Of a DNA stretch of 64,000 nt, positions 10,353 through 63,649 are shown piece after piece; the first letter of the stretch is position 1, and each line of letters begins with the position of its first letter. The DNA comes from Escherichia coli (GTDB lineage Bacteria > Pseudomonadota > Gammaproteobacteria > Enterobacterales > Enterobacteriaceae): the NCBI RefSeq assembly GCF_003019035.1, contig NZ_CP027447.1. One strand, given 5' to 3'. The notes beneath the pieces are model-generated. The model did not search any database. It had not been told where the DNA came from and saw only the letters and a program-made list of their open reading frames with translations. A program made the translations under genes and the position numbers.

Positions 10353-13025
10353 ATGCGTCAGAAAGAGACAACGGCCACGACCCGCTTTTCACTCCTACCG
10401 GGGAGCATTACCCGCTTCTTTTTACTGTTGATCATTGTGTTACTGGTGACGATGGGGGTAATGGTACAAAGTGCCGTTAACGCCTGGCTGAAAGATAAAA
10501 GTTACCAGATTGTCGACATTACCCACGCAATCCAAAAGCGCGTCGATACCTGGCGTTACGTGACCTGGCAGATCTACGACAACATTGCCGCGACGACCTC
10601 CCCCTCCTCCGGCGAAGGTTTACAAGAGACGCGCCTGAAACAGGATGTCTACTATCTGGAGAAACCACGCCGCAAAACGGAAGCGTTAATCTTTGGCTCT
10701 CACGACAACTCAACGCTTGAGATGACTCAACGGATGTCCACCTATCTGGACACATTGTGGGGCGCAGAAAATGTACCGTGGTCGATGTATTACCTGAATG
10801 GTCAGGATAACAGTCTGGTGCTGATCTCAACCCTGCCCCTCAAAGATCTCACCTCCGGATTTAAAGAATCGACCGTCAGCGACATTGTTGATTCACGTCG
10901 TGCAGAGATGTTGCAACAGGCCAACGCCCTCGATGAACGCGAAAGTTTTTCTAACATGCGCCGCCTGGCCTGGCAGAACGGTCATTACTTTACCTTGCGT
11001 ACCACGTTCAACCAGCCAGGACATCTGGCAACGGTCGTGGCTTTTGATCTGCCGATTAATGATTTGATCCCACCGGGTATGCCGCTGGACAGTTTCCGCC
11101 TTGAGCCAGACGCGACGGCAACGGGAAACAATGATAATGAGAAAGAAGGGACGGATAGCGTCAGTATCCACTTTAACAGTACGAAGATTGAAATCTCCTC
11201 GGCACTCAACTCTACCGATATGCGCCTGGTCTGGCAGGTTCCTTATGGCACCTTATTGCTGGATACGTTGCAAAACATTCTGCTGCCACTGCTGCTGAAC
11301 ATCGGTTTGCTGGCGCTGGCGTTATTTGGCTATACCACATTCCGCCATTTCTCCAGCCGCAGTACAGAAAGCGTCCCCAGCACGGCGGTCAATAACGAAT
11401 TGCGCATTTTACGGGCAATTAATGAAGAGATAGTCTCACTGCTGCCGCTCGGCCTGCTGGTTCACGATCAGGAATCGAACCGCACAGTCATAAGTAACAA
11501 AATTGCCGATCATTTGCTGCCGCATTTGAATCTGCAAAACATCACCACCATGGCGGAACAGCATCAGGGGATTATTCAGGCGACGATCAATAACGAGCTG
11601 TATGAGATCCGCATGTTCCGCAGCCAGGTTGCGCCGCGCACACAAATTTTCATTATTCGCGATCAGGATCGCGAAGTGCTGGTAAACAAGAAACTCAAGC
11701 AGGCGCAGCGTCTGTATGAGAAAAACCAGCAGGGGCGGATGACCTTTATGAAAAACATTGGCGATGCGCTGAAAGAACCCGCACAGTCCCTGGCGGAGAG
11801 CGCGGCTAAACTCAACGCCCCGGAAGGCAAACAACTGGCGAATCAGGCAGATGTGCTGGTGCGGCTGGTCGATGAAATACAGTTAGCGAACATGCTTGCG
11901 GACGATAGCTGGAAAAGTGAGACGGTGCTGTTCTCCGTGCAGGATTTGATTGATGAAGTTGTGCCTTCAGTGTTGCCTGCCATCAAGCGTAAAGGTCTGC
12001 AACTGCTGATTAACAATCATCTGAAAGCACACGATATGCGCCGCGGCGATCGCGATGCCTTACGACGTATTTTGCTGCTACTGATGCAATATGCCGTGAC
12101 CTCAACGCAATTAGGAAAAATCACCCTTGAGGTTGATCAGGATGAGTCCTCCGAAGACCGCCTGACGTTCCGCATTCTGGACACGGGAGAAGGCGTAAAT
12201 ATTCATGAAATGGATAATTTGCACTTCCCGTTTATCAACCAGACCCAAAACGATCGCTATGGCAAGGCGGACCCGCTGGCATTCTGGCTGAGCGATCAAC
12301 TGGCGCGTAAACTGGGCGGTCATTTAAACATCAAAACGCGGGATGGGCTTGGTACACGCTACTCTGTGCATATCAAAATGCTCGCAGCTGACCCGGAAGT
12401 TGAAGAGGAAGAAGAGCGTTTACTGGATGATGTCTGCGTAATGGTGGATGTTACTTCGGCAGAAATTCGGAATATTGTCACTCGCCAGTTAGAAAATTGG
12501 GGTGCAACCTGTATCACACCCGATGAAAGATTAATTAGTCAAGATTATGATATCTTTTTAACGGATAATCCGTCTAATCTTACTGCCTCTGGCTTGCTTT
12601 TAAGCGATGATGAGTCTGGCGTACGGGAAATTGGGCCTGGTCAATTGTGCGTCAACTTCAATATGAGCAACGCTATGCAGGAAGCGGTCTTACAATTAAT
12701 TGAAGTGCAACTGGCGCAGGAAGAGGTGACAGAATCGCCTCTGGGCGGAGATGAAAATGCGCAACTCCATGCCAGCGGCTATTATGCGCTCTTTGTAGAC
12801 ACAGTACCGGATGATGTTAAGAGGCTGTATACTGAAGCAGCAACCAGTGACTTTGCTGCGTTAGCCCAAACGGCTCATCGTCTTAAAGGCGTATTTGCCA
12901 TGCTAAATCTGGTACCCGGCAAGCAGTTATGTGAAACGCTGGAACATCTGATTCGTGAGAAGGATGTTCCAGGAATAGAAAAATACATCAGCGACATTGA
13001 CAGTTATGTCAAGAGCTTGCTGTAG
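10353..13025 (+). CDS. rcsD: RcsD phosphotransfer protein of the Rcs phosphorelay
   Basis: 890-aa ORF MRQKETTATTRFSLLPGSITRFF...; C-terminal HPt domain (AQTAHRLKG). Confidence 0.93.
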   Translation: MRQKETTATTRFSLLPGSITRFFLLLIIVLLVTMGVMVQSAVNAWLKDKSYQIVDITHAIQKRVDTWRYVTWQIYDNIAATTSPSSGEGLQETRLKQDVYYLEKPRRKTEALIFGSHDNSTLEMTQRMSTYLDTLWGAENVPWSMYYLNGQDNSLVLISTLPLKDLTSGFKESTVSDIVDSRRAEMLQQANALDERESFSNMRRLAWQNGHYFTLRTTFNQPGHLATVVAFDLPINDLIPPGMPLDSFRLEPDATATGNNDNEKEGTDSVSIHFNSTKIEISSALNSTDMRLVWQVPYGTLLLDTLQNILLPLLLNIGLLALALFGYTTFRHFSSRSTESVPSTAVNNELRILRAINEEIVSLLPLGLLVHDQESNRTVISNKIADHLLPHLNLQNITTMAEQHQGIIQATINNELYEIRMFRSQVAPRTQIFIIRDQDREVLVNKKLKQAQRLYEKNQQGRMTFMKNIGDALKEPAQSLAESAAKLNAPEGKQLANQADVLVRLVDEIQLANMLADDSWKSETVLFSVQDLIDEVVPSVLPAIKRKGLQLLINNHLKAHDMRRGDRDALRRILLLLMQYAVTSTQLGKITLEVDQDESSEDRLTFRILDTGEGVNIHEMDNLHFPFINQTQNDRYGKADPLAFWLSDQLARKLGGHLNIKTRDGLGTRYSVHIKMLAADPEVEEEEERLLDDVCVMVDVTSAEIRNIVTRQLENWGATCITPDERLISQDYDIFLTDNPSNLTASGLLLSDDESGVREIGPGQLCVNFNMSNAMQEAVLQLIEVQLAQEEVTESPLGGDENAQLHASGYYALFVDTVPDDVKRLYTEAATSDFAALAQTAHRLKGVFAMLNLVPGKQLCETLEHLIREKDVPGIEKYISDIDSYVKSLL

Positions 13026-55050: not shown

Positions 55051-59115
<4,065 letters not shown>

Positions 59116-59128
59116 ACTCCTTTCTGAT

Positions 59129-59162
59129 GCCCGGTAAGCATGTTGTTACCGGGCATTTTTGC
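59129..59162 (+). terminator. Rho-independent terminator of glpACB
   Basis: GCCCGGTAAgcatgttgTTACCGGGC hairpin followed by ATTTTTG. Confidence 0.8.
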
Positions 59163-59307
59163 GTACACGATTCCGTGCCCAATGTATACGTTGCAACGCA
59201 GTGAAAATTCCTCTGAAAACGTCTCGCAAAGGCTGAAACTGGCAGATGTCAAAGGCCCGGGATAACCGTAATGTCGCGTCATCATAAATATCAGGTGACG
59301 GACAACC

Positions 59308-60222
59308 ATGACCGAATCAACAACCTCCTCCCCGCATGATGCGGTATTTAAAACCTTTATGTTCACACCCGAAACCGCACGGGATTTTCTGGAAATACAT
59401 CTACCAGAGCCGCTGCGCAAGCTTTGCAACCTGCAAACCTTACGCCTGGAACCCACCAGTTTTATTGAAAAAAGTTTACGCGCTTACTACTCGGATGTTT
59501 TGTGGTCTGTGGAAACCAGCGACGGTGACGGCTATATCTACTGCGTGATTGAACATCAAAGCTCTGCAGAAAAGAATATGGCTTTTCGGCTAATGCGCTA
59601 TGCCACTGCCGCCATGCAACGTCATCTGGACAAAGGCTATGACAGAGTCCCGCTGGTGGTACCATTGCTGTTTTATCATGGCGAAACCTCGCCCTACCCG
59701 TACTCACTCAACTGGCTGGATGAGTTTGACGATCCGCAACTTGCCCGGCAGTTGTACACCGAAGCTTTTCCGTTGGTGGATATCACCATCGTACCTGACG
59801 ATGAGATCATGCAACATCGGCGTATAGCTCTGCTGGAACTGATTCAAAAGCATATTCGCGACCGCGATTTAATCGGTATGGTCGACAGGATCACCACGCT
59901 TTTGGTTAGAGGCTTCACTAATGACAGCCAGCTACAAACACTGTTTAATTATCTGCTGCAATGCGGCGATACCTCCCGTTTCACCCGTTTTATTCAGGAG
60001 ATTGCCGAACGTTCACCACTACAAAAGGAGAGATTAATGACTATTGCTGAACGGCTACGGCAGGAAGGACATCAAATTGGCTGGCAGGAGGGTAAATTAG
60101 AAGGCATGCATGAACAAGCCATTAAAATTGCCTTGCGCATGCTGGAACAGGGCATTGATCGTGACCAGGTGCTCGCGGCCACTCAGCTAAGCGAAGCCGA
60201 TCTGGCAGCGAATAACCACTAA
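59308..60222 (+). CDS. yfaD: Rpn-family recombination-promoting nuclease / putative transposase (YfaD/RpnE)
   Basis: 304-aa [39 protein letters not shown]... (Rpn/YhgA-like N-terminus). Confidence 0.85.
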
Positions 60223-60262
60223 TTAACACAGGCCCACAGCCGATCCCCATGGGCCTTTGATA

Positions 60263-61066
60263 TCAATAACTACCTTTTACGCGTGGCCCATTTTTGCCTG
60301 ATTCAAACATCGCCAGTCGTTGATCCAGGGCATCGCTGTAGAGCATCGTGTCAACGCCAACAGCGACAAAGTTCGCTCCCCACGCCAGGCATTGCTGCGC
60401 CATATCAGGAGCCACAGCCAGAAAACCAGCAGCTTTACCCGCAGCACGGATCCGCCGAATACTGGTTTCAATAATTCGCTGCACTTCCGGGTGCCCGGCG
60501 TTATCCGGGTAGCCCAACGACGCAGAAAGATCCGCAGGTCCAATAAACACGCCATCAATCCCTTCGACGTCGAGGATTTCGTCCAGGTTATCCAGTGCCG
60601 TCTTACTTTCCACCTGCACCAACAGACAAAGCGAATCGTTGACGTGCGCCATGTAATTCTCAATGCGTCCCCAGCGAGCAGCCCGTGCCACACTGGCCCC
60701 AACACCACGCTCACCGTAGGGAGGATAGCGCGTGGCAGACACCACCTGACGTGCCTGATCGGCAGTATCGACCATCGGGATCAGTAGAGTTTGCGCGCCA
60801 ATATCCAGGACTTGTTTAATCAGCGACTTACTGGCTTCCACCGGACGGATCACGGGTTGGCTGGCATAGGGCGCTACCGCCTGTAGCTGGTGATAAAGAT
60901 CCTGAATGGTGTTTGGCGCGTGCTCCCCGTCAATCAGCAACCAGTCATAACCGGAGGTGGCGGCAATTTCTGCCATATAAGAAGTAGTCGAGCTTAACCA
61001 CAGACCAATTTGCACTTCGCCCTTGCGTAAACGTTCTTTAAAGGGATTGCTTAATAATGCGTTCAT
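60263..61066 (-). CDS. rhmA: 2-keto-3-deoxy-L-rhamnonate aldolase
   Basis: ORF track over-extends to 61369; the ATG at 61066 gives the canonical 267-aa [26 protein letters not shown]... (HpcH/HpaI aldolase family). Confidence 0.92.
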
Positions 61067-61083: not shown

Positions 61084-62373
61084 TTAATGATGTGCCACGT
61101 CGGTCTGCGCAACAGTGCGATTTACACGCAGAGTGAAAATAATCAGCGAACCGATGACCGCCACCGCTGCCAGCGTCAGTAATCCCGCCGCATCGCTGGA
61201 AAATAACGTTTCTGCTTTCACGCGCAGGATCGGGGCAATAAACCCGCCCACTGCACCAAACAGGTTTACAAAACCAATCCCCGCAGCCAGCGCCGTACCG
61301 GAAAGCAGTTGTGTCGGCATCGTCCAGAACACCGGCTGCACGGCAATAAACCCGATGGCTGCAACACACAGCGCTACGATCGCCAGTACTGGAGAAAGCA
61401 GCCCGGACAGACCAATACCAATGCCCGCCGCCAGTAATGTCAGCGCTGCGACATTACGCCGTTCGCCGGTTTTATCGGAATAGCGCGGAATAAGCCAGGT
61501 TCCAAACAAGGCCGCAACCCACGGAATGGCGGTGACCACCGACGCCGTAAAGCCCACTTTTGTCCCCAGCAATGCAGCAACCTGGGTCGGCAGGAAGAAA
61601 ATTAATCCGTAAACCGCTACCTGAATGGTCAGGTAGATAATCGCCAGTTGCCAGACTCGCCCATTACGCAGCGCATCGCTCAGTCGGGAAGTCACTTTCT
61701 GTTGTTCTTCACTTGCCAGTTGGTTGATAAGCAACGTTTTTTCTTCTTTACTCAGAAAACGTGCCTGCTCCGGTGTGTCATCAAGCCAAAAGAATGTGAA
61801 TACCCCAGCGCCGACTGCCAACAATCCTTCAATAACAAACATCCAGAACCAGCCGGGATGCCCCATAAATCCATGCATCTCCAGCAGCGCGCCAGAAAGC
61901 GGTGATCCCAGTGTTAACGCCAGCGGTGCGCCCATATAGAACAGCCCCATAATGCTGGCGCGATTACGCTGCGGAAACCATTGCGAGGTGAGATAAATCA
62001 TACCAGGGAAAAACCCAGCCTCCGCAGCACCAAGCAGAGTGCGAACAATCAGAAATTTCGCTTCAGTATCGGCCCATGCCATGGCAGCCGAAAGAAATCC
62101 CCACAGCAGTGTTGTCGTACCAATCCAGGTTCTTGCCCCCAGTTTGCGCATCAAAAGATTCGCCGGAACCCCCAGAAACGCGTATACCACAAAGAAAATG
62201 CCTGCTCCCAGCGCATAAGCTTCATTACTCAGCCCGGTATCAATCTGGTAGGTCTGTTTGGCAAAACCAATATTCGAACGGTCGAGAAACGCCAGCACAT
62301 ACAGCGCCAACATAAACGGAATTAAACGCGCGCGGTTTTTCTTCACCACGGCGTCAAGCAAAGCGGTGCTCAT
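61084..62373 (-). CDS. rhmT: L-rhamnonate MFS transporter
   Basis: ORF track starts at 62412; the ATG at 62373 with AAGGAG Shine-Dalgarno gives 429 aa [22 protein letters not shown]... Confidence 0.9.
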
Positions 62374-62429: not shown

Positions 62430-63635
62430 TTAGTGGCTGTAGGGGCGTTTCAAATTGCAGTCACGATTGAGTTCGACGCCGAAACCGGGTTTATCAAGCA
62501 CTGATTTATGAATACGACCATTCACCGGAACCGGCTCATTAAGCAGAATCGGATCAAATTGCGGACGCATCGTTGAACAATCCGGGCTGGTCATCAGGAA
62601 TTCACTGAATGGCGTATTGGTGAAGGTGATCACCGCATGGTGGGAGTAAACAGACGAACCGTGCGGCACCACCAGTTGCCCTCTGGATTTGGCGATTGCG
62701 GCAATTTCCACCAGCGTGGTTAAGCCACCGCACCAGCCAACATCCGGCTGCATAATGTCGATACCGGTTTCTGAAAGCGTACGGAAAGATTGCAATGTGC
62801 CGTGGTGCTCACCGCTGGTGACCATCATCCCCGCTGGTGCGTTGCGTTTCAGTTCGCGATAACCTTCATACTGCTGTGGCGGCAGGCACTCTTCGATCCA
62901 TTTCAGGTTATAGGGCGCGCAAGCGTGGGCCAGTTTGGTGGCATAGTTCACGTCCTGACTCATCCAGCAGTCGAGCATTAACCAGAAATCCTCACCGCAT
63001 TTTTCACGCATATCCGCGACCATAGCGGCATCTTTGCGGATCCCCGCATCGCCATCATGTGGCCCCCAGTGCGTCGGCATTTTGCCACCGATAAAGCCCA
63101 TCTCTTTTGCCAGATCCGGACGCGCACCTGTGGCGTAGAACTGAATCTCATCACGAACCGCGCCGCCTAAAAGTTTATAAACCGGAAGCCCAACCACTTT
63201 GCCGAACAGATCCCACAGAGCCAGATCGACACAGGAAATCGTATTCATCACCAGGCCACCAGAGCCGGAGTAATACAGGGTGGCATTGAGCATTTGATCG
63301 TGGATCAGTTTGATATCACTGACACATTTACCCTCAATGAAACGGTTAAGGTGTTTTTCGACAATAAAACAGCCCATTTCACCGGCTGTCGAAACGGCGA
63401 ATCCGGTCTGGCCGTTTTCTGCTTCGACTTCAACAATCAACGTGCCAAGAACGTTAATGCCAAATGACTGGCGTGACTGCTCATAATCGCGGTATTTACT
63501 CATCGGGGTGGCAATATGATCGTCAATCCAGTGATTCGCCCCCTGGTCGTGATAATCACCGCCGCCAGCGCCTTTTTCTGCTGTCGCACCGCCAGTAAAC
63601 CAGGCGCGAACCTGTTTGATTTTTGGTAGGGTCAT
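62430..63635 (-). CDS. rhmD: L-rhamnonate dehydratase (enolase superfamily)
   Basis: ORF track starts at 63647; the ATG at 63635 is preceded by GGAGAA and gives 401 aa [30 protein letters not shown]... Confidence 0.92.
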
Positions 63636-63649
63636 GCTGTTCTCCATTG

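Follow-up and report, generated by a model that had tools for sequence, protein, structure and literature searches.

The chromosomal rpnE (yfaD) gene of Escherichia coli is an intact, long-resident gene with a nested small-protein frame

We analyzed a 64,000-nucleotide stretch of an Escherichia coli genome (RefSeq assembly GCF_003019035.1, contig NZ_CP027447.1; hereafter, the window), in which an intact, ATG-started open reading frame (ORF) of 304 amino acids plus a stop codon lies at 59308..60222 on the plus strand. This gene is the known chromosomal E. coli rpnE (yfaD), intact and long resident. A sequence-only reading of the window had placed it in the Rpn/YhgA-like family between the glp and rhm operons, and both assignments were borne out. 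It is preceded by glpC and followed by rhmA, rhmT and rhmD, and its product scored well above the cut-offs for Pfam PF04754 (Transposase_31, YhgA-like; residues 8-209, E = 5.4e-88, 294 bits versus a cut-off of 21), the Rpn subfamily TIGR01784 (176 versus 52 bits) and the NCBIfam equivalog NF007418, the RpnE model (715 versus 583 bits). The RpnA equivalog NF007361 was not reached (428 bits, cut-off 583), and equivalog score and position after glpC together place the gene in the RpnE orthologous group (NF007418). In E. coli SCU-301 (NZ_CP051751), a 1.6-kb stretch around the gene is 100% identical and carries the RefSeq annotation rpnE. The main features of the locus were already published between 2017 and 2023, and the current understanding is unchanged. 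Their positions in the window are as follows:

57925-59115, plus strand: glpC, same strand as and upstream of rpnE (TIGR03379, 766 bits)
59127..59156, plus strand: glpC terminator hairpin (ATGCCCGGTAA / TTACCGGGCAT, then a T-run), an 11-nt perfect inverted repeat (I6) at the left edge of the rpnE cassette
59157..59307, plus strand: rpnE upstream region (inferred promoter and 5' UTR), with blocks conserved in Escherichia, Citrobacter and Salmonella
59272..59304, plus strand: predicted 5'-UTR hairpin (minimum free energy -13.5 kcal/mol)
59308..60222, plus strand: full-length rpnE (yfaD) coding sequence, RpnE_L (ORF, Pfam, NCBIfam and RefSeq match)
59332..59679, plus strand: PD-(D/E)XK nuclease core, residues about 9-124
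59494-59496, 59551-59553 and 59557-59559, plus strand: active-site codons D63, E82 and Q84
59338-59340 and 59587-59589, plus strand: further key codons of the nuclease core, D11 and R94
59794..59808, plus strand: PDDEI motif, residues 163-167, containing D165
60025..60030, plus strand: Shine-Dalgarno sequence AAGGAG for the internal start, 6 nt before the ATG at 60037
60037..60222, plus strand: rpnE_S, nested in frame, 61 amino acids from M244; predicted antitoxin and oligomerization domain
60070..60105, plus strand: hypervariable four-residue repeat region, 3 units, inside the long helix 237-280
60230..60256, no strand assigned: GC-rich hairpin between the convergent rpnE and rhmA, 10 pairs (inverted repeat I7), at the right edge of the cassette
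60263-61066, convergent with rpnE: rhmA/yfaU, downstream
61084-62373, convergent with rpnE: major facilitator superfamily (MFS) transporter (rhmT/yfaV), downstream
62430-63647, convergent with rpnE: rhmD, downstream

The product name attached to NF007418 is 'ISNCY family transposase'. This RefSeq label is misleading, and the nested 61-amino-acid gene has no annotation. Only one genome was ≥99% identical over 58900-60500, and we suspected unusual divergence of the locus; this was rejected as a rare-lineage effect, since a glpA-glpB control also had few near-identical genomes (36). An Rfam scan of the same interval (E up to 1) returned no match.

Modeling of the RpnE N-domain predicted a PD-(D/E)XK nuclease fold; a PDB sequence search with full-length RpnE returned nothing at E 0.01. 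Residues D11, D63, E82, Q84, R94 and D165 are all present at the RpnA positions, each of which matters functionally according to RpnA mutagenesis, with alanine at the D165 position yielding a hyperactive enzyme. The catalytic residues on which a nuclease assignment depends are thus intact. Across 69 representatives that were 29-65% identical to RpnE, D11, D63, E82, Q84 and R94 were retained in 58-68 sequences and D164 in 64, while position 165 varied more (E in 29 and D in 23). Within the Rpn family, Mg2+-dependent endonuclease activity is known from RpnA only. For RpnE itself, nuclease activity, toxicity, neutralization and phage defense would be expected purely by homology.

The main biology of the locus, which the sequence-only reading had missed, is the published gene-within-gene antitoxin and its hypervariable repeats. 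In the window, an in-frame internal start (M244) with its own ribosome-binding site is predicted to give a C-terminal small protein, and its anti-Shine-Dalgarno duplex is much more stable than that of the full-length start (-8.7 versus -3.8 kcal/mol). An identical 12 nt (AAGGAGAGATTA) is found upstream of ypaA in K-12 and at the internal start in the window, and M244 was retained in 60 of the 69 representatives. When compared with the crystallized RpnA-S (7TH0), RpnE_S aligned residue 1 on residue 1 over span 1-59 (E = 1.1e-4), with a Foldseek probability of 1.00 and a TM score of 0.75 on the target. Together with PF27070 (HTH_Rpn_C), precomputed on close homologs, this match identifies a C-terminal helical RpnS-type domain. 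By sequence, 7TH0 was matched only with the 61-amino-acid module as query.

Published data from K-12 bear on expression of the nested gene. Ribo-RET start peaks occur in all K-12 rpn genes, with the yfaD internal start conserved; tagging detected the RpnE_S, RpnE_L and YpaA proteins; and dRNA-seq reported an internal transcription start for all K-12 rpn genes. Our scan for consensus sigma-70 promoters found none upstream of rpnE or inside the gene. Zhong et al. (2023) established RpnS as the antitoxin to the full-length Rpn nuclease, with L toxic and S neutralizing for RpnA, RpnB and RpnC.

The four-residue repeats begin 11 residues past M244, within the published range of 8-20 residues after the internal methionine. 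Among nine E. coli alleles, the number of units ranged from 2 to 10, and allele lengths differed by multiples of 12 nt. In RpnC, repeat number sets the specificity of L-S pairing and cognate neutralization. Tandem Repeats Finder reported no array in the window allele, whose three degenerate 12-nt units do not suffice for detection; the repeats are visible only by comparison with other alleles.

The window allele lacks a separate ypaA, and its only S module is of the K-12 YpaA type. Nucleotide identity of this module is 96.5% with the ypaA module of K-12 and 78.3% with the 3' end of K-12 rpnE itself. A duplicated S-module junction was found in 3,134 of 5,426 genomes (~58% of complete E. coli genomes); from strain to strain, S modules can be duplicated, fused or chimeric. 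Single-module rpnE alleles like this one, and loss or fusion of the downstream copy, have already been described, and databases contain many examples (P0002, 592 member sequences). A single module is also present in the outgroups E. albertii, Salmonella and Citrobacter, with a tail similar to the YpaA type in E. albertii and Salmonella. Judged from these sequences, the evidence favors an ancestral single-module state for the window allele; a precise recombinational deletion (secondary re-fusion) would give an identical allele. The downstream S copies of E. coli differ in repeat number, and their tails diverge abruptly. In the 58% of E. coli that carry them, they might be more than simple duplicates and serve as reserve antitoxins against Rpn toxins that are non-cognate or incoming.

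The cassette is bounded on its left by the glpC terminator hairpin; orthologous loci and empty sites alike have a hairpin at this place after the stop codon of glpC. On its right, the hairpin between rpnE and rhmA is probably a bidirectional terminator. In a nine-sequence alignment of the upstream region (A2), mean column identity was 71%, with invariant blocks CGCAAAG and GGTGACGGA..ACCATG. The 3' arm of the predicted 5'-UTR hairpin (GGTGACGG) covers the sole Shine-Dalgarno-like sequence before the full-length start codon. Its 6-bp core pairs in all nine orthologs, where one-sided changes all lead to G-U and no pair is broken; double compensatory changes were not seen in this set. A regulatory function of the hairpin is inferred only. 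Toxin dosage might also be set in translation, with the hairpin, which is conserved across genera, hiding a weak RpnE_L ribosome-binding site while that of the nested antitoxin stays open and strong, a suggestion that we consider doubtful. If true, a cis-RNA layer would hold the L:S ratio low and could open on a trigger; we did not find such a layer described in the Rpn papers that we consulted.

Next, we examined how widely and how stably the gene is carried. With N-domain coverage of at least 80%, rpnE was present in 5,420 of 5,426 E. coli genomes, at a median of one place per genome (maximum of 2) and never on a plasmid. The N-domain is under purifying selection (dN/dS 0.046-0.085), and synonymous divergence from E. 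albertii (dS = 0.53) is similar to that of flanking genes (0.49-0.73). In E. albertii, Citrobacter and Salmonella, orthologs with the conserved upstream non-coding region immediately follow glpC, and synteny-based RpnE orthology within Escherichia was previously reported. In C. youngae ATCC 29220, a small tandem duplication has shifted the frame of the ortholog. Homologs of 65-67% identity in C. koseri and Salmonella were rejected as orthologs, being at other loci (with yjiR/yjiS-like neighbors, or at feoC-bioH, the rpnA site), so identity alone does not define RpnE orthologs. Based on these results, rpnE is an old, vertically inherited resident after glpC, and neither a mobile element nor a marker of rhm.

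We favor the reading, with a probability of roughly 75%, that one rpnE frame makes two proteins, as a gene-within-gene toxin-antitoxin system that is an old, vertically inherited resident. RpnE_L would be a Mg2+-dependent DNA endonuclease with an N-terminal PD-(D/E)XK domain (D63, E82, Q84), followed by a helical linker, a C-terminal long helix and a small helix-turn-helix-like bundle. The internal start at M244, with its much stronger Shine-Dalgarno sequence than the main start, would supply the 61-amino-acid RpnE_S, that is, the C-terminal module of RpnE_L made alone. By analogy with RpnA and RpnC, RpnE_S would pair through the long helix with RpnE_L and keep the nuclease inactive, and the number of four-residue repeats (3 here) would decide which S pairs with which L. 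Phage infection or stress may then free the nuclease, leading to DNA damage that would limit phage spread. The present analysis itself demonstrates anatomy, residue conservation, fold, allele type, population frequencies, synteny and selection. In the Rpn papers that we consulted, we found no nuclease, toxicity or phage-defense assay for RpnE, and PADLOC 2.0 gave no match, as no model recognizes RpnE. Near-universal presence at a fixed E. coli site is unusual for a defense gene and counts against a toxin-antitoxin or defense role.

That near-universal presence, together with purifying selection and vertical inheritance, fits a domesticated, non-toxic Rpn with a housekeeping or regulatory role, such as DNA binding by the C-terminal helix-turn-helix-like module with S as a modulator. 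Zhong et al. allow housekeeping roles for some Rpn proteins, and the S module gives weak helix-turn-helix-type Pfam matches. Moreover, overexpressed K-12 RpnE was without effect on recombination, viability (toxicity) and SOS, the sole paralog to behave in this way (Kingston et al. 2017). However, this inactivity is not decisive because the constructs still carried the internal antitoxin. In addition, all residues needed for RpnA catalysis are kept and conserved, and a spread of 2-10 repeat units with duplicated, fused or chimeric S modules fits conflict-driven diversification better than housekeeping. We therefore regard domestication as unlikely.

A still less probable explanation, proposed by the sequence-only reading, is that the rpnE product is a recombination nuclease related to transposases that promotes rearrangement nearby, with the gene marking an old boundary of rhm acquisition. 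Part of this idea stood, as synteny at the glpC-rhmA junction does vary: rhm has a patchy distribution among species and 29% of E. coli lack it (rhmD was found in 3,835 of 5,426 genomes), the sequence from mid-rhmA to yfaY is deleted in one EHEC lineage and, in one divergent strain, a fimbrial operon replaces both cassettes. Rpn paralogs other than RpnE also raise RecA-independent recombination when overexpressed. Nonetheless, rpnE and rhm are independent across Enterobacteriaceae, so rpnE does not mark rhm. At the species level, the glpC...yfaY locus contained neither cassette in 24 cases, rhm only in 6, rpnE only in 3 and both in 2, with further rpnE-only and both-present cases in Salmonella and Citrobacter. 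Genomes with rhm and not rpnE, and the reverse, largely refute the boundary explanation. Within E. coli, rpnE is effectively core and rhmD is the variable part, and the EHEC deletion ends in mid-rhmA, not next to rpnE. Neither cassette stands out in GC content (rpnE 49.0%, rhm 52-54%, window mean 50.6%), and the dS of rpnE is like that of the flanking genes.

The two other elements of that explanation fared no better. Promotion of local rearrangement is disfavored by the recombination assay of Kingston et al. (2017), in which RpnE was the one K-12 paralog with no effect on overexpression. Kinship with transposases is an annotation legacy: conserved terminal repeats are absent, the gene is single-copy, chromosomal and never plasmid-borne, and the fold is of the PD-(D/E)XK type, unlike that of an autonomous transposase. 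Zhong et al. (2023) judged Rpn proteins highly unlikely to be transposases. A flanking inverted repeat (I3; 59245-59258 / 60251-60264, 13/14 nt) was considered as a terminal repeat and rejected because the Citrobacter and Salmonella orthologs lack it and the terminator stem accounts for its right arm. Direct repeats or a target-site duplication were not seen at the cassette edges, and the locus showed neither the terminal inverted repeats with target duplication nor the multiple copies or variable positions of an insertion sequence.

Finally, a pseudogene or decaying remnant left by an old mobile element and now functionless, suggested by the RefSeq transposase name and the frameshifted C. youngae ortholog, has a negligible probability and is already refuted by selection and expression evidence: the window frame is intact, the N-domain is present at ≥80% coverage in 5,420 genomes, dN/dS is 0.05-0.09 and both protein products were detected in K-12.

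If rpnE is the toxin-antitoxin gene that we favor, it shows that stable, vertically inherited core genes can include genes of the defense type. The locus unites the main Rpn features (a nested gene, repeats that expand in 12-nt steps and antitoxin modules that are duplicated or fused), and the single-module window allele offers a clean substrate for testing RpnE as an active toxin or nuclease.

Among known systems, insertion-sequence transposases share with rpnE only the database name and a patchy, single-gene presence between species. Unlike them, rpnE lacks terminal inverted repeats and target duplications that are conserved outside Escherichia, occurs as one fixed copy per genome with a PD-(D/E)XK fold and gives no sign of autonomous transposition. 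The plasmid-encoded RpnP2_LS of E. coli ECOR13 (Zhong et al.) belongs to the same family and has the same L/S architecture. It is the only Rpn system for which anti-phage protection was demonstrated (against T-even phages), whereas rpnE is chromosomal and core, and a defense role there would follow by homology.

RpnA (YhgA), with RpnA_S, is the biochemically and structurally characterized exemplar. It shares with RpnE the Pfam domain, the D11/D63/E82/Q84/R94/PDDE residues and the nested C-terminal small protein, whose crystal structure (7TH0) is matched by RpnE_S. It differs in being a paralog, not an ortholog, at the feoC-yhgA-bioH locus. RpnA also shows nuclease, toxin and recombination-promoting activity, and in the same assays K-12 RpnE had none. 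The closest system is K-12 RpnE (YfaD, b2244) with YpaA (RpnE_Ss), which occupies the same glpC-rhmA locus, has an N-domain protein 98.8% identical to that of the window and has the same internal start and Shine-Dalgarno sequence. K-12 has two S modules: a nested one with 2 repeat units and a diverged ...TDADIPNCH tail, and a second one, the separate ypaA gene, with 3 units and a tail different from the nested one. In the window there is only one module, nested and of the ypaA type, and the locus is 183 nt shorter than in K-12.

The gene at 59308-60222 and its neighbours are arranged as follows.

57925-59115, + strand: glpC, upstream neighbour of rpnE
59308-60222, + strand: rpnE (yfaD) coding sequence in the ORF list, ATG start, 304 codons
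60263-61066, convergent with rpnE: rhmA/yfaU, downstream neighbour, 40 nt from the end of rpnE
beyond rhmA, convergent with rpnE: genes for an MFS transporter (rhmT) and rhmD

The rpnE product matched PF04754 (Transposase_31, 'YhgA-like') in Pfam over residues 8-209 (E = 5.4e-88) and scored 715 bits against the NCBIfam equivalog NF007418 (cut-off 583), the model that NCBI attaches to rpnE despite the product name 'ISNCY family transposase'. It also exceeded the cut-off of the general Rpn subfamily model, TIGR01784, and scored 428 bits, under the cut-off, against the RpnA equivalog of NCBIfam. Over 55200-56800, 58900-60500 and 62430-63647 the window matches E. coli strain SCU-301 (NZ_CP051751) at 100% identity, and the annotation of that strain names the gene rpnE. 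The exact ORF, both family matches and the neighbours fully bear out the sequence-only reading of an Rpn-family gene between glp and rhm. Judged on all testable sequence-level criteria, the gene belongs to the RpnE orthologous group and to the RpnL/RpnS gene-within-gene class, and we regard the identity and architecture of the locus as nearly certain.

Purified RpnA is a Mg2+-dependent endonuclease stimulated by Ca2+; D11A, D63A, E82A or Q84K abolishes every phenotype, R94A and Q84A alter phenotypes, and D165A, inside the PDDE motif, is hyperactive (Kingston et al., PMC5350276). At RpnA numbering, D11, D63, E82, Q84, R94 and P163-D-D-E-I are all present in the window RpnE. Searching 1.84 billion cluster representatives gave 8003 relatives at E <=0.001, and we counted conservation over 69 aligned full-length representatives sharing 29-65% identity with RpnE, which kept D11 in 68, D63 in 67, E82 in 66, H83 in 65, R94 in 61 and Q84 in 58. 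An AlphaFold2 model built from this alignment was confident (mean pLDDT 90.9) and placed helices at 9-31 and 91-108 and strands at 40-47, 63-70, 76-84 and 116-123, so that the predicted secondary-structure order of the N-domain is that expected for a PD-(D/E)XK core. Absence of the catalytic residues had been named as a ground for rejecting the sequence-only reading; they are present, and mostly kept across the 69 representatives.

The earlier reading missed a gene within the gene, marked by two features.

60025-60039, + strand: Shine-Dalgarno and in-frame internal start at rpnE codon 244 (AAGGAG AGATTA ATG)
60070-60105, + strand: repeat units of RpnE (residues 255-266), beginning 11 residues past M244

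Predicted pairing with the 16S 3' end was -8.7 kcal/mol for the internal Shine-Dalgarno versus -3.8 for the best site ahead of the main ATG, and diverse family members kept M244 (60/69) and T245 (54/69). The resulting 61-residue protein, RpnE_S, aligns residue 1 to residue 1 with crystallised RpnA-S (7TH0; E = 1.1e-4), and the C-terminus of the RpnE model matched the same structure with a Foldseek probability of 1.00 and a TM of 0.75 on the target. In retapamulin ribosome profiling, each of the five E. coli rpn genes gave peaks at in-frame starts within the gene, the yfaD start being conserved (Meydan et al. 2019), and tagged RpnE_S, full-length RpnE_L and YpaA, the product of a separate downstream copy, were all detected in K-12 (Zhong et al., PMC10400941). 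The anatomy of the gene, its catalytic residues, its fold class and the nested start with its strong ribosome-binding site are direct observations.

Ahead of the main start lies a hairpin (59272-59304). The one Shine-Dalgarno-like sequence upstream of ATG 59308 is covered by its 3' arm, GGTGACGG. The 6-bp core of the hairpin pairs in 9/9 orthologs, which come from Escherichia, Citrobacter and Salmonella; each of the eight one-sided changes yields a G-U pair, no pair is broken, and double compensatory changes were absent among the nine. As a lead only, the hairpin may limit toxin translation by occluding the ribosome-binding site.

We fetched and translated nine other E. coli rpnE alleles for comparison with the window. 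Their N-domains are nearly identical, they hold 2, 3, 4, 7, 8 or 10 repeat units with length differences in multiples of 12 nt, and the tail takes two forms, one ending ...GFEREIVLATTQLTDADIPNCH and the other ending differently. K-12-type genomes carry rpnE with the GFEREIVLATTQLTDADIPNCH tail, a stop, the 12 nt AAGGAGAGATTA and then ypaA, a second copy of the C-terminal S module bearing the second tail; because AAGGAGAGATTA and ypaA directly follow the stop, the duplicated unit begins exactly at the internal Shine-Dalgarno. The window gene has one S module only, whose DNA shares 96.5% identity with the ypaA module of K-12 and 78.3% with the 3' end of K-12 rpnE itself. A probe for the K-12 duplication junction was covered at >=80% in 3134/5426 complete E. 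coli genomes and in most others matched only over its Shine-Dalgarno-plus-start part, placing the duplicated state at roughly 58% and the non-duplicated state at 42%. A chimeric tail occurs in the E. coli representative of GTDB (locus L009, 12114-12347), and one homologous protein (P0001, 361 aa) is a read-through fusion of rpnE and ypaA containing both modules.

In E. albertii, Citrobacter and Salmonella the orthologs have a single module each; the tail in E. albertii is closely like the window's, and that in Salmonella shares the ...AANNH ending. The single-module state is therefore probably ancestral, although precise recombinational loss of one module would give the same picture; the downstream copy is already described as inserted in some cases and as lost or fused in others (Zhong et al., PMC10400941). 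In a K-12-type locus (L001, 4126-4506), the two modules agree at 61/63 of the first aligned positions and at only 48/73 over the tail, a sharp switch that points to gene conversion in the 5' part, or to one of the tails having come from a foreign source. RefSeq tags the downstream module of three E. coli loci (L002, 5405-5662; L006, 1881-2090; L008, 2869-3078) as an 'incomplete, missing N-terminus' pseudogene, which is probably an annotation artefact, since their AAGGAGAGATTA-ATG start context is identical to that of K-12 ypaA. Several single-member metagenome proteins (P0006-P0009) join part of RpnE to part of another Rpn paralog and could be real recombinants or assembly chimeras.

Across 5426 complete E. 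coli genomes, rpnE N-domain DNA was present at >=80% coverage in 5420 (99.9%), at a median of one copy and a maximum of two, and none was on a plasmid. N-domain dN/dS was 0.070 against K-12, 0.046 against E. albertii and 0.085 against C. farmeri; dS against E. albertii (0.53) lay inside the flanking-gene range (0.49-0.73), and GC was 49.0% compared with 50.6% for the whole window. Taken together, these values indicate that rpnE is functional, old and vertically inherited in Escherichia. Kinship with transposases, also proposed from sequence alone, was borne out by none of the insertion-sequence criteria (terminal inverted repeats with target-site duplication; several copies or varying positions within a species). 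We found no transposon-like ends, in agreement with Zhong et al. (PMC10400941). The sole flanking inverted repeat (59245-59258 / 60251-60264) was rejected as a transposon end, being unconserved in Citrobacter and Salmonella orthologs and having a terminator stem as its right arm.

A GlpC scan of species-representative genomes gave 80 loci, each typed by tblastn with RpnE, RhmA, RhmT, RhmD, RhmR, YfaY and YfaZ.

Junction states among loci having the glpC...yfaY frame
yfaY directly after glpC: 24 loci (Enterobacter, Leclercia, Lelliottia, Kosakonia, Kluyvera, Cedecea, Buttiauxella, Superficieibacter, Pseudocitrobacter, Citrobacter sp. R56)
rhm only: 6 loci (Klebsiella pneumoniae, K. oxytoca, Trabulsiella, two Citrobacter, one Enterobacter)
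rpnE only: 3 loci (two C. youngae genomes, ATCC 29220 being frameshifted; Citrobacter sp. wls619)
rpnE and rhm: 2 loci (E. coli, E. albertii)

Context look-ups added Salmonella enterica (protein in >3000 collection blocks) and another Citrobacter as rpnE only, and C. farmeri and two further assemblies as carrying both. Wherever rpnE occurs it follows immediately on the terminator of glpC, and the place of rhm is invariably between the rpnE position and yfaY. Non-coding DNA 5' of rpnE is alignable over three genera (71% mean column identity), which suggests that rpnE arose once and was later lost in places, or that it moved together with its flanks through homologous recombination. Within E. 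coli, rhmD occurs in only 3835/5426 complete genomes (71%) and an O103:H2 strain (L007, 1853-2314) has kept of rhmA only a 462-nt piece from the 3' end, which is joined to yfaY, so the accessory part is rhm, not rpnE. The divergent E. coli 06-00048 (L099, NZ_CP015229, 1587-6538) lacks both; its glpC-yfaY interval is occupied by a chaperone-usher fimbrial operon of four genes, a third cargo type. In C. youngae ATCC 29220 (L012, about 11380-12360), a short tandem duplication encoding ...SGTAVQRYSGTAVQRY... shifts the frame of the rpnE ortholog, a case of the gene decaying in place.

The interval is thus a variable spot, and the synteny variation anticipated at the glpC-rhmA junction was found. 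The sequence-only reading stands as to family and junction variability; its view of rpnE as a boundary of rhm acquisition is unsupported, as the two are gained and lost independently and rpnE is the stable element in E. coli. Small-module homology to the solved antitoxin, repeat polymorphism, allele type, frequencies, selection and synteny were likewise observed directly.

Other rpn genes occur nearby or elsewhere. Genomes of Klebsiella, Leclercia, Enterobacter and Kosakonia without rpnE beside glpC carry a different paralog, sharing 57-60% identity with the N-domain of RpnE, 0.5-2 kb past yfaZ and on the opposite strand (L018, 8563-9288; L020, 7892-8599; L023, 15044-15751; L027, 14838-15542; L030, 11612-12340; L037, 7066-7764). 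A Salmonella enterica Rpn protein (L094, 7001-7927) 65% identical to E. coli RpnE is encoded at the feoC-bioH (rpnA) locus, and a C. koseri protein at 67% adjoins yjiR/yjiS-like genes; Rpn orthologs are therefore wrongly assigned if only the degree of similarity is used.

In RpnA, RpnB and RpnC, a toxic full-length nuclease is blocked by the small protein; the RpnA_S structure is solved, the first long helix contains four-residue repeats that differ among strains and decide which S neutralises which L, and plasmid-encoded RpnP2 protects against T-even phages (Zhong et al., PMC10400941). The corresponding long helix in the RpnE model spans residues 237-280. By analogy with these paralogs, RpnE_L would be a DNA endonuclease toxin restrained by RpnE_S via the shared helix, with a putative role in phage defence. 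K-12 RpnE, which makes both proteins (Zhong et al., PMC10400941), did not promote recombination, cause toxicity or induce SOS (Kingston et al., PMC5350276), a result that is not decisive because the constructs kept the nested inhibitor. We lean slightly towards RpnE itself acting as a toxin-antitoxin or defence module, and give the overall reading of identity, architecture and behaviour a probability of roughly 0.75. The essentials of rpnE, including single-module alleles, are already published (Kingston 2017, Meydan 2019, Zhong 2023); to these known systems we add the frequencies (58% duplicated; rpnE 99.9% versus rhmD 71%), the table of independent rpnE and rhm presence and absence across Enterobacteriaceae, evidence that rpnE and its flanks have diverged to a matching extent, and a small conserved 5'-UTR hairpin possibly occluding the toxin ribosome-binding site.
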